Positions 21,702 to 40,544 of a DNA stretch of 53,331 bases are shown one piece after another (positions within the stretch are counted from its first letter, which is position 1; each line of letters starts with the position of its first letter). The translations under genes were made by a program, and so were the position numbers. The stretch comes from a virus (lineage: Duplodnaviria; Caudoviricetes). Below the pieces are notes generated by a model, which was given only the letters and a program-made list of their open reading frames with translations, did not search any database and was not told the DNA's origin. The stretch lies in IMG/VR virus record IMGVR_UViG_3300036828_001070, positions 1 through 53,331 of that record; one strand, written 5' to 3'.

Positions 21702-21925
21702 CCCAGATCGGTATCAAACACGTCGTCAATCACCAGTTTCCTGGTTTTGTCCAGGTGCACCGCAGCAAACAATTTTGCTTTCCCGTACTGTTCCAAGCCG
21801 AAGACCGCGAAAAGATTCTCCATCAGCCCATCCATAACAAACTGGGTTTCAAAGCTGCGGTCCTGGCTATACATCAGGCCCGGACCATCGGGACGATTCA
21901 GCGGGCGCTGCATCTTGACGATCAC
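21695..21925 (-). CDS. hypothetical protein
   Basis: Coupled ORF, IVKMQRPL. Confidence 0.6.
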   Translation of the reverse strand: MIVKMQRPLNRPDGPGLMYSQDRSFETQFVMDGLMENLFAVFGLEQYGKAKLFAAVHLDKTRKLVIDDVFDTDLGW

Positions 21926-26410: not shown

Positions 26411-26489
26411 TTGGCGTTCTCCCTGTCGCTTGCAGCCCACATCGCCTGTCGCCTACACTCTACCACTTGCGCTTATCCCTTGCGCCTAA

Positions 26490-27150
26490 AATCTCCCCAC
26501 TTTCTACTGTCGCCCCCAGCCTACCTTATCCTCCAATACTTACTACTCTTACTAACTTAATTACCTTTGTTTCCCTATTCCCAACTTTATTTTTACCTCT
26601 ACCCCAATTGTGAAACTTTTTACCCACCTCGTCCCGTCCTTACCTCTTTCAGCCTTTTCCTCGCGCTCGCCTTACCTCGCTTTCCAGCAAAACCCTTTCC
26701 CCCTATTTTTTTCTTCTCTATTCCACTTTTCGTTTTCATTCGAAAAAGGTAGGATGCGTCAGTGACATCGCGCCCCCGCCTGGAGCGGACAAATAAAGCG
26801 CGAAATTCAGGCCATCCGGGCCATCATAGAACCTCCACAGCGCATCTGTGACGGCACGTAGATGCCGGCAGAGTCCCTATCTTTAGATAGAGTGTCGTAG
26901 GATGCTGCAGCCCGGCAGAATCCCGTCCTACAACTAGTCAATTAGCGTTTGCGGCCGAATCCCTGACAATACCGCCGGCAGCCTGCAGCCTGATCGTGTT
27001 TAGTCAGATGCGCCTTGATAAGCGCCTAAGAACATCTGGAATTGGTTCTTAGAGCATCCCCTGCGCGCATTATGCCGGCAGGAAACCTGCGCGCGAAACA
27101 GGGTAAGTGGAAGACACAGAGGTGACAAAGAAAATATTTACGATAAGAGT
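26490..27150. other. long non-coding divergence region: pyrimidine-rich tract followed by a hairpin-rich segment
   Basis: 26490-26745 is strongly C/T-skewed; 26840-27105 has several inverted repeats and CCGGCAG repeats; no credible ORF. Confidence 0.6.
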
Positions 27151-27152
27151 AA

Positions 27153-27218
27153 AATAGGCTATTGACGACACATTAGAAGCATGTAATTCTATAGATCCGT
27201 TGTAGGCGATTAGCTACA
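27153..27218 (+). promoter_or_regulatory. early promoter (TTGACG at 27162) with two operators (27153-27170 degenerate; 27201-27218 TGTAG-gcgattag-CTACA)
   Basis: AT-rich UP-like region, near-consensus -35, operator palindromes; -10 ambiguous. Confidence 0.6.
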
Positions 27219-27225
27219 GCGGTAA

Positions 27226-27279
27226 GACCGAAACCCGCGTTTTGTGGGTCGTAGTGTAAAGCACTACCTGACGAAGGTC
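27226..27279 (+). ncRNA. type II hammerhead ribozyme
   Basis: GACC-GAAA-CCCGC(GTTTT)GTGGG-TC^-GTAGTG(TAAAG)CACTAC-CTGACGA-A-GGTC: full catalytic core and three stems; predicted cut after 27250. Confidence 0.88.
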
Positions 27280-27284
27280 AGATA

Positions 27285-27307
27285 AAGCGCATACCACGCT
27301 TAGGAGA
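27285..27307 (+). promoter_or_regulatory. UACCA-loop hairpin plus SD, copy 1
   Basis: AAGCG-CATACCA-CGCTT-AGGAGA. Confidence 0.7.
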
Positions 27308-27315
27308 GAAACGAA

Positions 27316-28194
27316 ATGAATTTACACCACTTTACCCATGGTGCACGTGCTAACCGGCAGCTGGAACCGATGACCATTGCGGAGCTGCAGTTAGCGGTTC
27401 CATCGGCATTTGCGACTACGGCGCATTCTTCGCGGTCTGAGCGTTACGCCTATATTCCTACGGCCAATGTGATTCAGGCGATGATGAAGGAAGGTTTCCA
27501 GCCTTTTAAGGCGACGCAGTCCGGATCCCGGATTGAAGGCAAGGCGGAATTTACCAAGCACTTGATACGCTTTCGCCATATTTCTGCCGGCAGTGATATT
27601 TGTGTAGGGGATAGCGTGCCTGAAGTTGTTTTGATTAACTCCCATGATGGCACCTCAGCTTACAAGCTGATTGCTGGGATGTATCGTTTGATTTGTTCGA
27701 ATGGGTTAATGGTGGCGGAGTCTACCACCGGATCTCTGAGCGTGCATCATACTGGCGACATTGTTAACCGGGTTATTGAAGGTTCGTTTGAAATTGTTGG
27801 CCAGGCATCGAAGGCGCTAGAGACTTCGAAGGTCTGGTCACATCTGGAATTGTCTGCAGGGGAGCGAGAAGTATTTGCTGAAGCTGCGCACACAGTACGG
27901 TTTGCTGAATCGGATGGCAAGGTAGACACGCCCATCACCGCAGCAATGCTTTTGACTCCGCGGCGCCGTGATGATGCTGGCAACAACCTTTGGCAAACGT
28001 TTAACCGGGTGCAGGAGAACGCGGTTAAAGGTGGATTGGCTGCGCGTGCCGAACGTAAACCTGGCCAGCGTATGGGACGTTTGGTTAGGACTCGCGAAGT
28101 TAAGGGTATCGACCAGGATGTAAAGCTTAACCGCGCGCTATGGCAGTTGGCAGAGCGGATGGCGGAGCTGAAGGGAGTTAAAACCGCAGCCTAG
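27316..28194 (+). CDS. DUF932 (DUF945/YubP-like) protein
   Basis: SRSERYAYIPT, FTKHLIRFR, PEVVLINSHDGTSAY, RLICSNGL, LWQTFNRVQEN motifs. Confidence 0.9.
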   Translation: MNLHHFTHGARANRQLEPMTIAELQLAVPSAFATTAHSSRSERYAYIPTANVIQAMMKEGFQPFKATQSGSRIEGKAEFTKHLIRFRHISAGSDICVGDSVPEVVLINSHDGTSAYKLIAGMYRLICSNGLMVAESTTGSLSVHHTGDIVNRVIEGSFEIVGQASKALETSKVWSHLELSAGEREVFAEAAHTVRFAESDGKVDTPITAAMLLTPRRRDDAGNNLWQTFNRVQENAVKGGLAARAERKPGQRMGRLVRTREVKGIDQDVKLNRALWQLAERMAELKGVKTAA

Positions 28195-28256
28195 CAGATG
28201 GCGAGGTGGGAGAGATCCCACCTTGTAATGCGCCGGCGGTCAGTCCAAAGTCTGAC
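28194..28256 (+). ncRNA. twister-like ribozyme (P5-type permutation, variant)
   Basis: GCA-GA-TGG-[P1 CGAGGTGGGA/TCCCACCTTG]-T^AA-TGC-GC..-[P4 GTCAG-TCCAAAGT-CTGAC]; T1 pseudoknot TGG/CCA in register; T2 non-canonical. Confidence 0.6.
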
Positions 28257-28268
28257 GCATTAAACCAA

Positions 28269-28289
28269 GTGCCTTACCAGCACAGGAGA
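28269..28289 (+). promoter_or_regulatory. UACCA-loop hairpin plus SD, copy 2
   Basis: GTGC-CTTACCA-GCAC-AGGAGA. Confidence 0.7.
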
Positions 28290-28296
28290 AAACCGA

Positions 28297-29052
28297 ATGA
28301 AGCATCTTATTTCGCTATCTGCAGCCATTAAGGCGAAGGCGCCGATCGTGGCGCTACCCATAGAAGGACACGCACCTGTATGCGTAGCGCGCGCGCGCCT
28401 GGCTAAGTGGTCTAAAGGCGTGACCATTACCAGCGTCAAGGTTACCGGTGGCGAAGCCTATATCACGATCGAATTCGAACGGCCGAAAGGCTATCAGGTA
28501 GAAGGTCCGATTAACCGCGTCGAAGTCCATCACCTCACTCCTCGGCGCCTGGAGATCGAAGGCACTGCCGGCAGAGTTAAAACCCGCTGCTCTTTTATTC
28601 CCATTGATAGACGTACGGCGGTTAAGACGCTGGCCGCTTGGAGCGAAAAGGAACGCGCGCGCCTCACTAAAAAGACGCTGTTAGGTGCGTTGGGAACCAA
28701 GGAAAGACGCGCGCTAAAGCTGGCCAAGCATGAGACTGAAGGCGAAGGTATGATCTCCGCCACGATCGCCTATCCCAACGGCAAACGTGCCGACGTCATG
28801 GGGCTGCCGGTAACTATTCCCCAGCTGGCGGAGCTGACGTTTGTAGTGCATCGCGCGCTATCCGCCGAAGGCGATTACGTAGACGACCAATGGACAGTAT
28901 CGGAGATCGTTAGCGGCCAGGCTGGCGGCTTCGGTGCGACTGCAGAGGATGCGATCGTAGACGCGCGCCAGCGCTGCGCTAAAACTTCGGCCGAAAAACT
29001 GCAGTCCATACGCGATCTAGTGGCTTCGATGTCGGAAGCGATCGCAGCTTAA
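28297..29052 (+). CDS. hypothetical early protein
   Basis: AGGAGA RBS, 251 aa. Confidence 0.75.
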   Translation: MKHLISLSAAIKAKAPIVALPIEGHAPVCVARARLAKWSKGVTITSVKVTGGEAYITIEFERPKGYQVEGPINRVEVHHLTPRRLEIEGTAGRVKTRCSFIPIDRRTAVKTLAAWSEKERARLTKKTLLGALGTKERRALKLAKHETEGEGMISATIAYPNGKRADVMGLPVTIPQLAELTFVVHRALSAEGDYVDDQWTVSEIVSGQAGGFGATAEDAIVDARQRCAKTSAEKLQSIRDLVASMSEAIAA

Positions 29053-30544: not shown

Positions 30545-30565
30545 ACGCTCTACCAGCGTAGGAGA
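30545..30565 (+). promoter_or_regulatory. UACCA-loop hairpin plus SD, copy 3
   Basis: ACGC-TCTACCA-GCGT-AGGAGA. Confidence 0.7.
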
Positions 30566-30573
30566 ACAAAGCC

Positions 30574-33117: not shown

Positions 33118-33140
33118 GTCGGCATACCACCGACAGGAGA
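33118..33140 (+). promoter_or_regulatory. UACCA-loop hairpin plus SD, copy 4
   Basis: GTCGG-CATACCA-CCGAC-AGGAGA. Confidence 0.7.
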
Positions 33141-33148
33141 ATCGTTCG

Positions 33149-33823
33149 ATGCAGAATGCAGTCGCTTACTTAAGAGTCTCCGGACAATCCCAGCTGGAAG
33201 GCACCGGCTTTGATCGCCAACTGGAAGCCTGCACCAGCTTCGCCGCCGGCAAAGACTTCGCCCTGGTCAAAATCTTCGAAGAGAAGGCCATCGCCGGCTG
33301 GAAGGATGAGGATGAGCGTCCCGCCTTCCAAGAGATGATCGCCTACATGCTGGACAACAACACCAGCATCATCCTGGTAGAAGGTCTGGACCGCCTGGCT
33401 CGCGCCATGCGCGTGCAGGAACAGCTGCTGCTCTACCTCGCCGCCAAGGATCTCACCCTCTACGCCGCTAACACTGGCGAGAACATCACCGAAGCGGTTA
33501 CCTCGGATCCCATGAAAAAGGCTTTGGTCCAGATTCAGGGAGTATTCGCGGAACTGGACAAAAGCATGATCGTGGCCAAACTGCGCAAGGGACGCGAACG
33601 CACCAAAGCCCGACACGGCCGCTGCGAAGGCCAGAAGCCCTATGGCCACTACCCCGGCGAAGCCCCGGTACTGGCGCGTATCCGCCACCTGCGCGCCCAG
33701 GGAATGCAATACCACCACATCGCCGAACGCCTTTCTGTCGAAGGCCACCGTTCGCGCTCCGGCGGTCCCTGGCGCGGTCCCGTCATCGCCAAGATCATAC
33801 GCCGGGAAGCGATAGCACCCTGA
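33149..33823 (+). CDS. small serine recombinase (resolvase family)
   Basis: YLRVSG..Q, ERPAFQEMI, VEGLDRLAR, C-terminal HTH-like region. Confidence 0.9.
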   Translation: MQNAVAYLRVSGQSQLEGTGFDRQLEACTSFAAGKDFALVKIFEEKAIAGWKDEDERPAFQEMIAYMLDNNTSIILVEGLDRLARAMRVQEQLLLYLAAKDLTLYAANTGENITEAVTSDPMKKALVQIQGVFAELDKSMIVAKLRKGRERTKARHGRCEGQKPYGHYPGEAPVLARIRHLRAQGMQYHHIAERLSVEGHRSRSGGPWRGPVIAKIIRREAIAP

Positions 33824-39622: not shown

Positions 39623-40544
39623 TGACGGCCTCCATCTTCTCCGGCTCTGCCGCCACTTTGCCTACCGGCTTGCGACTGCTCCTGACCGCCTCGCTAAGGT
39701 TCTTCCAGCCCTCGGCCGCATCCGCGCCCATGTCGATCTCATCCGGCAGCCCCAGCCGGTTCTTGGCGTCGAAGGTGGGATTGTCGGAGTTGGTGTATGC
39801 GATACGCTGACTCACCTCGGCGGCCTTACCCTTTTTGCCTGGCTCCGCGATCTTGGTTCCCTGCTTTACCAGCACTTCGAAGTTGCCGAAGATGATGTTG
39901 TCCAGCCAGCCCTTGGTCAGCCCCCAGGTCTTCTCATGCATCTCCGGCATGTAGCGGTCGTAGTCGGCGCCGCCGGGATTCTTGAAGGTCCGGATGCGGG
40001 TGTGGACCAGGAAAAAGATGGTCATGCCTTTCTCTTTGCGCAACTCATCCAGCGCATTCAAAAACATGCGCCAGTCCGCCAGCGCCACCTCGTAGCCGCG
40101 CTGATAACCCATAAACCCGCGCTCTCCCCAGTCGCCTTCGAAGTCACGCTGACAGACGTACTCGTGCATCATGCGTTCGGCGCCGTTGGCGGTATCGAGT
40201 ATCAGCGTCTTGTAAGGATGATCTTCCGTGCGGAGAAACTTCACCGCCGCCAGCAGATCAGCCCAGGTAGTGGCTTCAGGGAAATGCGGTGTGGGCGGAA
40301 GCTGGCCGGAATCGATAAGCGTTACCAGACCGGTCTCGCCGCGTGTCATCAGGAAGATCGGCGCCCGCGAGTAAGCCAGGATGCTGGTCTTGCCAAAGCC
40401 TACGCCGGCGTGAAAGGCCCAGCGGCTGGGGAGGGCGATGCCCTTGCTGGTGATATCCGCCACGGTGAAGACTTTGGTGGTAACCGTTGTGGCGACTGGT
40501 CCCGACAGCGGTTGCCGGGGAGTACGCATAGTAGTTGGACTCAT
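39615..40544 (-). CDS. Sak4-like AAA_24 ATPase / annealase
   Basis: GVGFGKTS, YKTLILDTA, FDAKNRLGLP. Confidence 0.85.
   Translation of the reverse strand: MSPTTMRTPRQPLSGPVATTVTTKVFTVADITSKGIALPSRWAFHAGVGFGKTSILAYSRAPIFLMTRGETGLVTLIDSGQLPPTPHFPEATTWADLLAAVKFLRTEDHPYKTLILDTANGAERMMHEYVCQRDFEGDWGERGFMGYQRGYEVALADWRMFLNALDELRKEKGMTIFFLVHTRIRTFKNPGGADYDRYMPEMHEKTWGLTKGWLDNIIFGNFEVLVKQGTKIAEPGKKGKAAEVSQRIAYTNSDNPTFDAKNRLGLPDEIDMGADAAEGWKNLSEAVRSSRKPVGKVAAEPEKMEAVNA

Follow-up and report, generated by a model that had tools for sequence, protein, structure and literature searches.

The window, as we call the whole 53,331-bp stretch of DNA analyzed here, is an IMG/VR viral contig of a soil phage, and the DUF932 gene that it carries was found to be bracketed by two self-cleaving ribozyme motifs of different classes. 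A minimal type II hammerhead motif (27226-27279, plus strand) is located in the leader of the gene, with a predicted cut after C27250, and a type-P5 twister motif (28193-28255, plus strand) starts within its stop codon, with a predicted cut between U28226 and A28227. Both motifs are on the same strand, 0.95 kb apart and flush with the DUF932 open reading frame (ORF; 27316-28194, plus strand, 292 amino acids, stop codon TAG at 28192-94), and they were the only ribozyme motifs in the 53 kb. We propose, with a probability of roughly 0.6, that the two ribozymes would provide protein-free end formation and insulation of the DUF932 mRNA. This interpretation was favored because a twister, a hammerhead, or a plain hairpin fills the same stop-abutting site in relatives. 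From the sequence, we infer a promoter, catalytic activity, and the direction in which mRNA stability would be affected.

The twister was the sole Rfam match in the whole window, both at the gathering threshold and at E ≤ 1. It matched Twister-P5 (RF02684) over the full length of the model (positions 1-58) with 44.5 bits against a gathering cut-off of 37.6, and the model alignment placed the U-A cleavage dinucleotide at 28226/28227, exactly where the initial annotation of this DNA had put a twister-like cut. An independent covariance model, R2, built solely from the twisters of the relatives L005 and L053, recovered the same interval with 30.8 bits (E 4.8e-5). The first two letters of the twister are the last two of the TAG stop codon. 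The motif has a closed P1 hairpin directly 5' of the U-A site as well as the P2 and P4 helices, and its alignment to RF02684 revealed that the conserved AAUGC and CAAAG-type loop letters are kept. Across nine aligned twisters, P1 and P4 varied in sequence yet remained paired, as judged by eye and uncounted. Under the general definitions of the twister pseudoknots, applied unscored, complementary GG/CC letters were present for pseudoknot T1, and pseudoknot T2 would include a G-U pair in the window, L042, and L100. The motif was confirmed as a genuine Twister-P5, with self-cleavage as its predicted activity.

The hammerhead is laid out on the plus strand as follows. The 3' strand of stem II (27226-29) is followed by GAA (27230-32) within a GAAA box (27230-33), the stem III hairpin (27233-49) with the closing pair A15.1-U16.1, and C17 at 27250, so that the cleavage dinucleotide is U27249-C27250. 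Downstream of the cut are the stem I hairpin (27251-67), the CUGACGA box (27268-74), an extra A (27275) between A9 and G10.1, and the 5' strand of stem II (27276-79). Stems I and III, each of 6-7 bp, are capped, and stem II, of 4 bp, is open; none of the 11 core letters is missing, and the three helices are perfect. A descriptor that demands all core letters and the three helices matched once in the window, with both strands searched, and in none of 200 dinucleotide shuffles, even with looser stem lengths. A covariance model built solely from the hammerheads of L013 and L075 (R1) recovered 27226-27279 with 36.7 bits (E 2.3e-9), and this was its sole match at E ≤ 10 in the 53 kb. The hammerhead cut predicted by the initial annotation is therefore borne out at the level of the motif, which we regard as confirmed and genuine, with cleavage itself predicted.

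The Rfam hammerhead models gave no match to this candidate even at E ≤ 10 (RF02276, gathering cut-off of 37 bits). The Rfam Hammerhead_II model, the consensus of which contains a loop-I pseudoknot, also missed minimal type II hammerheads that are fully canonical, two in L035 and one in L075, and the hammerhead of L013 reached 33 bits, below the cut-off of 37; we therefore attribute the miss to a sensitivity limit of this model. A weak Hammerhead_II match of 15.2 bits elsewhere in the window (21861-21920, minus strand), which is without a CUGANGA box, was rejected as a chance match.

Seven hammerheads, from the window, L063, L035 (twice), L075, L117, and L067, were aligned to R1. In this model-fitted alignment, 99% of cells were paired and 13 of the 15 pairs showed compensatory changes, a level reached by none of 500 shuffles. 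Hammerhead alignments made with MAFFT (A2 and A3) were structurally inconsistent and were excluded from the models. In all seven copies, loop I begins with a U, and an A immediately precedes stem II on the 5' side; these two bases correspond in position to the U-A loop-loop contact that excerpts of PMC2632901 describe for most natural hammerheads. We also observed that, after cleavage, the CUGAC box and the letters past stem II (27268-27286) can form a 5-bp CUGAC/GUCAG hairpin in the window, and the hammerhead of L013 is capable of the same; such a hairpin could trap the cut product and block religation.

Cleavage at both motifs would release an RNA of 976 nt (27251-28226, plus strand; 28226-27251+1) that contains the whole DUF932 ORF together with its hairpin-Shine-Dalgarno (SD) element, in agreement with the product that the initial annotation had described. 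Because the mechanisms of both ribozyme classes are established, this RNA is predicted to start with a 5'-OH followed by the stem I hairpin and to end with the P1 hairpin of the twister and 2 nt that bear a 2',3'-cyclic phosphate. Folding placed a terminal hairpin with a 9-bp stem and 2 nt at the 3' end of the predicted DUF932 RNA, and terminal hairpins were found on both cleavage products. Among sequencing runs searched for this stretch, one DNA run was listed as a possible source, and no RNA run contained it.

As 5'-OH and 2',3'-cyclic phosphate ends are established substrates of RtcB (excerpts of PMC8782182), a host RtcB could ligate the excised RNA, which contains an SD sequence and a full ORF, into a circular translatable mRNA, and RtcB was found in 2 of the 5 related Acidobacteriota host genomes. 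No RtcB is encoded in the 53-kb window, and only those 2 of the 5 host genomes have one. The ends of the 976-nt RNA are buried in hairpins and do not pair with each other (287 of 300 shuffles paired as well or better), as the initial annotation had already noted in reporting no end-pairing stem. Since the ends come from unlike ribozyme classes, neither ribozyme can religate them, and no ribozyme would template their juxtaposition. Retrozymes and viroid-like RNAs have two copies of one class with halves that reassemble, whereas the window has a hammerhead at the 5' side and a twister at the 3' side. A recognized ribozyme on both sides of DUF932 was found in the window only and in none of 216 other loci (80 from viruses, 80 from bacteria, and 56 from metagenomes). 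According to excerpts of PMC3088659, circular or spliced products were sought for clustered prophage hammerheads and none were detected. The circular mRNA offered by the initial annotation as one of two readings is therefore unsupported, and ligation of this RNA by a host enzyme appears extremely improbable. A milder idea is that stop-abutting ribozymes sense translation, because a terminating ribosome must unfold the first helix of the ribozyme and cleavage would thus report DUF932 translation; even taken jointly, this idea and circularization by a host RtcB-type ligase have very little probability in our judgment.

A pair of like ribozymes was observed in L035 (1460-1837; the same record as L115), where a cysteine-rich ORF of 83 amino acids just downstream of DUF932 has a minimal type II hammerhead on either side, the two having the same stem II strands. 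The leftover halves of the excised RNA of ~322 nt could reassemble into one hammerhead, and such a pair would favor self-ligation to a circle, unlike the mixed pair of the window.

To describe the DUF932 flanks in relatives, we used the best 80 of 387 viral and the best 80 of 498 genomic relatives. The 80 viral records, which amount to 3.92 Mb, were scanned with Rfam (gathering threshold; E ≤ 0.1; E ≤ 0.05), with R1, and with the descriptor. A separate R1 scan of 50 whole records gives only a lower bound, as its loose pre-filter missed the second hammerhead of L035 and that of L067, both of which are found by cmsearch. A ribozyme directly 3' of the DUF932 stop codon was present in 11 of the 80 viral records: a Twister-P5 at or above the threshold in seven (L042, L043, L045, L046, L053, L064, and L100), a sub-threshold twister of 31.7 bits in L061, and a type II hammerhead in L035, L063, and L067. 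The whole-record scans with Twister-P5 returned eight threshold-passing matches, seven of which abut a DUF932 stop codon and one of which lies one gene downstream, in the L053 record; the two weaker matches were that of L061 and one of 17.6 bits located ~690 nt downstream in the L036 record. In the L053 record, we observed that two Twister-P5 motifs of 55.1 and 50.9 bits (G021:C1:41173-41236 and 40416-40478, minus strand) are placed around the gene downstream of DUF932. In the bacterial set, with flanks of 700 nt, three of the five loci from Acidobacteriota prophages had a ribozyme at the same site, a hammerhead in the case of L117 and twister variants in those of L118 and L122, compared with 0 of the 75 others, which are mostly from Alphaproteobacteria. 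The 56 metagenome loci, which partly duplicate the viral records, contributed a further twister (L202) and two further hammerheads (L241 and L251), all at the 3' side. In all cases, the distance from the stop codon to the ribozyme was -2 to +3 nt. Among other DUF932 loci, flanking ribozymes recurred at the 3' side, were rare at the 5' side, and never stood on both, and the recurrence of this stop-abutting site speaks for the other reading of the initial annotation, namely protein-free processing of the early transcript. The host of the phage is probably acidobacterial.

We then considered what occupies this site when no ribozyme is present, on the basis of 73 different flanks, each comprising the 60 nt that follow a DUF932 stop codon (six duplicates were dropped, and the L062 sequence was of insufficient length). 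The ribozyme-free flanks folded with z < -2 in 45 of 62 cases, with a median of -26.8 kcal/mol and a median z of -3.3, whereas 2 of the 62 control windows from the coding regions of the same loci did so (Wilcoxon p 1.7e-10). Some ribozyme-free flanks resemble terminators with U-runs, but this does not hold for many others. DUF932 is therefore normally followed by a stable hairpin, and a ribozyme offers one means of placing such a hairpin at the extreme 3' end; the type II permutation of the hammerhead and the type P5 permutation of the twister both leave a closed hairpin directly 5' of the cut. In L052 and L041, sisters of twister loci, the ~50 nt after the stop codon keep only a GCAG-like start and a strong hairpin. 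These remnants resemble the 5' cleavage fragment of a twister, with the catalytic 3' half missing.

In the mechanism that we propose, transcription would start ~30 nt upstream of the hammerhead, which would remove a leader of ~50 nt and leave an mRNA that begins with a 5'-OH and the stem I hairpin, followed by the hairpin-SD element. A second cut, by the twister 32 nt past the DUF932 stop codon, would sever the downstream cistrons and leave a 3' end with the P1 hairpin and a 2-nt tail bearing a 2',3'-cyclic phosphate. RNA polymerase would continue into the downstream genes, and the next cistron would begin with the 3' fragment of the twister as a 5'-OH leader. The product would be a discrete 976-nt monocistronic mRNA with a hairpin at both ends, and neither the promoter leader nor the downstream genes would then influence the stability and translation of the DUF932 mRNA. 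The 5' part would play the role of RiboJ, a synthetic insulator, and the 3' part that of an RNase III site of T7 or of a 3' stabilizer hairpin that does not terminate transcription. An effect in the opposite direction, modeled on glmS with RNase J1, is conceivable: cleavage might mark the downstream cistrons or DUF932 for 5'-OH-dependent decay and thereby limit the early burst, and excerpts of a review (PMC6765202) allow that processing could yield transcripts of differing stability or translation efficiency in either direction. However, both products carry terminal hairpins, and hairpins are found at the same place in ribozyme-free relatives, which fits protection; we regard such a destabilizing role as improbable.

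The observations that weigh against insulation and end formation by both ribozymes concern the hammerhead, the promoter, and the distribution of the ribozymes. The hammerhead has a 5-nt loop with which no pseudoknot is possible, its stem II is just 4 bp long, and the A27275 insertion in its core was present only in the window copy among the seven aligned hammerheads. Folding of the hammerhead gave -19.3 kcal/mol for the active secondary structure and -26.9 kcal/mol for the minimum free energy structure, a difference of 7.6 kcal/mol in favor of the latter, in which a CUGAC/GUCAG hairpin sequesters the CUGA box. The extra core A and the more stable competing fold would suit a situation in which only the 3' twister works, the 5' hammerhead being a weak or dead copy of a unit of stop codon and hammerhead that landed in the leader. 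A TAA (27223-25) indeed precedes the window hammerhead as in other copies, but no ORF terminates at that codon, and no remnant of an upstream ORF was recovered before it by tblastn searches with the ORFs that precede the hammerheads of L198 and L075. Among the relatives, canonical hammerheads upstream of DUF932 were found in L075 and L198 only, both of which abut the stop codon of a real upstream ORF, and hammerhead-like elements with a damaged core occur upstream of DUF932 in other relatives. Against a dead copy, the window keeps the 11 core letters, the three helices, the U of loop I, and the A that precedes stem II. In 2001, De la Pena and Flores reportedly found a viroid hammerhead to tolerate an additional A at the same position. 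We consider an inactive or weak 5' hammerhead to be rather unlikely.

The damaged elements are of a type III hammerhead-like form and lie ~30 nt upstream of DUF932 in L048 (501-572), L049 (490-558), L054 (487-557), L058 (486-558), and L059 (488-558); the element of L049 is the same in L050, L051, and L025, and that of L059 is the same in L060. They have a covarying stem I, a GAAA, and the GUC site; their box, however, is 8 letters long (CUGA-AY-GA) rather than 7, the G8 position is an A in L048 and L058, and the copy in L057 is degraded further. Upstream, the stem III strand is repeated, and this copy could give rise to a competing hairpin. At E ≤ 10, Rfam Hammerhead_3 gave no match on the elements of L048, L049, L054, L058, and L059, and their activity is doubtful. 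A type III hammerhead that passes the descriptor, with a sub-threshold Rfam score of 30.4 bits, was seen in a Rhizobiales genome (L028, 347-396), ~1.1 kb upstream of DUF932; it was the only ribozyme seen near a non-acidobacterial DUF932.

As for the promoter, a putative sigma-70-type element (27162-27190, plus strand) was read by eye, with a -35 box TTGACG (27162-67), a 17-nt spacer, and a -10 box AATTCT (27185-90); a consensus promoter scan of the window gave no call at this place. Transcription from this element would begin near 27197, which lies ~30 nt 5' of the hammerhead. Clearer promoters of the TTGACA type were found at the same place before DUF932 in L033, L003, L006, L014, L017, and L018.

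Both ribozymes are absent from L033, the closest relative (72% identity), and no carrier of the 5' hammerhead of the window was found above 72% protein identity in the viral, genome, and metagenome collections. In the DUF932 tree, which has 46 rows (exact duplicates L050, L051, L060, and L066 were dropped, and L118 and L122 are marked as having none, as their twisters were found afterwards), the ribozymes are patchy: twisters are present in 6 of the 9 rows of one clade, and hammerheads occur at scattered positions. The ribozymes are thus dispensable for DUF932 function, given L033 and the patchy tree. Such a pattern, with sister pairs in which only one member has a ribozyme (L053/L052, L035/L036, and window/L033), would also be expected if the ribozymes were neutral or selfish passengers at cistron boundaries, with no selected effect on DUF932 expression. 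The window twister resembles the variant of L042 and L100 though the proteins belong to different clades, and the truncated twister-like remnants in L052 and L041 fit the same view. Neutral passengers would not readily account for the precise placement within -2 to +3 nt of the stop codon, for the presence of seven of the eight cut-off-passing twisters in 3.92 Mb at a DUF932 stop codon, for helices that covary around intact cores, or for a stable hairpin at the same site otherwise. We therefore consider this explanation unlikely and retain protein-free end formation as the preferred interpretation.

The window, the completeness of which CheckV puts at 65%, encodes an integrase and a primase-helicase, and its genes are mainly on the minus strand; a short plus-strand operon opens with the DUF932 gene. 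Upstream of DUF932 is an ORF-poor spacer of 875 nt, beyond which the neighboring genes are divergent. Within this spacer between the divergent operons, ~320 nt (26440-26760, plus strand) are strongly pyrimidine-rich and contain short imperfect direct repeats (families D2 and D11). The DUF932 ORF matched PF06067 with an E-value of 7.6e-44 and 150.6 bits against a cut-off of 23, covering positions 1-227 of the 227 in the profile, and it matched phrog_12094 with an E-value of 4.7e-95. Its structure model had a predicted local distance difference test (pLDDT) score of 83. A profile search against the PDB returned nothing (best E 0.9), and the best results of fold searches with the model were within noise (Foldseek E 0.039; VIA-align Z 6.7). 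Its Atlas neighbors were DUF932/YubP clusters only; the name YubP agrees with the remark of the initial annotation on the early-transferred (leading) regions of plasmids.

Directly before the SD sequence of DUF932, AGGAGAG, is a hairpin with a UACCA-type loop (27285-27308, plus strand). Elements consisting of a 4-5-bp hairpin with UACCA in the loop, AGGAGA, and a start codon were observed before four plus-strand genes of the window: 27285-27308 before DUF932, 28269-28290 before the next cistron (28297-29052, plus strand, 251 amino acids), 30545-30566 before ORF 30574, and 33118-33141 before the serine recombinase at 33149. Comparable hairpins with an ACCA loop precede DUF932 in the relatives L003, L014, L018, L033, L038, and L039. 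In another group (L034, L035, L036, L037, L062, and L198), a hairpin with a covarying stem (CGUG/CACG, CCAG/CUGG, and CCUG/CAGG) and a conserved 16-nt loop (CGAACUAMACGCGG-like) is located ~15-45 nt upstream of the DUF932 start, directly before the SD sequence; it had no Rfam match.

It is already known that self-cleaving ribozymes flank phage genes (2011) and that twisters and hammerheads share contexts. As judged from sequence, the new elements of the present locus are a heterologous ribozyme pair that brackets one ORF, a predicted natural hammerhead in a promoter-proximal position in a bacterial phage, a recurrent stop-abutting DUF932 site in phages of Acidobacteria at which twister, hammerhead, and hairpin alternate, and a minimal form of the type II hammerhead that goes unscored by Rfam. 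No link between DUF932 and ribozymes was found in the full-text literature, the coverage of which excludes the gene lists and supplements of Roth 2014 and Weinberg 2015. According to excerpts of PMC6765202, the role of thousands of bacterial and phage hammerheads and twisters is still an open question. The DUF932 locus and its relatives offer a clean natural comparison for it, with a twister, a hammerhead, or a plain hairpin at one site, and the window adds a second ribozyme between the putative promoter and the ribosome-binding site. They suggest a testable function, in which mRNA would gain hairpin-capped 3' and 5' ends while transcription is not stopped, and they supply matched constructs for it. 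As the pseudoknot-less minimal type II hammerhead escapes Rfam, such ribozymes are probably under-counted in phage genomes.

We compared the locus with known systems. In the early mRNA of phage T7, RNase III cuts at intercistronic sites and leaves hairpin 3' ends, and transcription continues. These sites depend on a protein and yield 3'-OH and 5'-phosphate ends, in contrast to the 2',3'-cyclic phosphate and 5'-OH ends predicted for the window. The original RiboJ design is said to be that of Lou et al. in 2012. In E. coli, RiboJ raised protein 2- to 10-fold and transcript ~2-fold, according to excerpts of Clifton et al. 2018 (PMC6206723). The window resembles it in the order of promoter, hammerhead, hairpin, and SD sequence, and cleavage would likewise remove the promoter-derived leader; RiboJ was engineered from a type III hammerhead of a satellite RNA, whereas that of the window is natural, of type II, and of predicted activity. 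Another counterpart of the 5' side is halovirus HF2, in which a hammerhead is located upstream of the first early ORF and the mapped 5' end is at most 3 nt from the cut (excerpts of PMC3088659). Both place a hammerhead within the 5' leader that precedes the opening gene of an early phage transcript; as described there, HF2 differs from the window in being an archaeal virus with a variant core, a helicase gene, and no 3' partner. Retrozymes and viroid-like circular RNAs (PMC5680766; PMC7761336) are likewise RNA segments bounded by self-cleaving ribozymes, but in these two copies of the same ribozyme template ligation of a mostly non-coding RNA, whereas the window has unlike classes around a coding one.

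The closest precedents are those of phages and their bacterial hosts. Type II hammerheads are common in bacteria, and Perreault et al. 2011 reported clustered hammerheads that flank genes in prophages, with processing of polycistronic RNA, proposed to yield mRNAs of gene length, shown in vitro (excerpts of PMC3088659). In Agrobacterium, the flanked genes were the anti-restriction gene ardA and another gene, and the identities of flanked genes were not constant. The window is like these prophages in that self-cleaving ribozymes flank single genes or short blocks in phage DNA. It is unlike them, as far as those excerpts go, in that its pair is heterologous with the 5' member behind a promoter rather than behind an upstream gene, its hammerhead is a pseudoknot-less minimal form that the Rfam type II model does not score, and the recurrent site is the stop codon of one gene family, DUF932. 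According to the review excerpts (PMC6765202), Roth et al. 2014 found twisters and hammerheads near the same kinds of genes, among them phage genes, and near each other, for a reason left unexplained there, and processing of polycistronic mRNA by these ribozymes was suggested without being defined. The present locus goes beyond such shared neighborhoods, since twister, hammerhead, and plain hairpin alternate at one nucleotide-precise DUF932 site.

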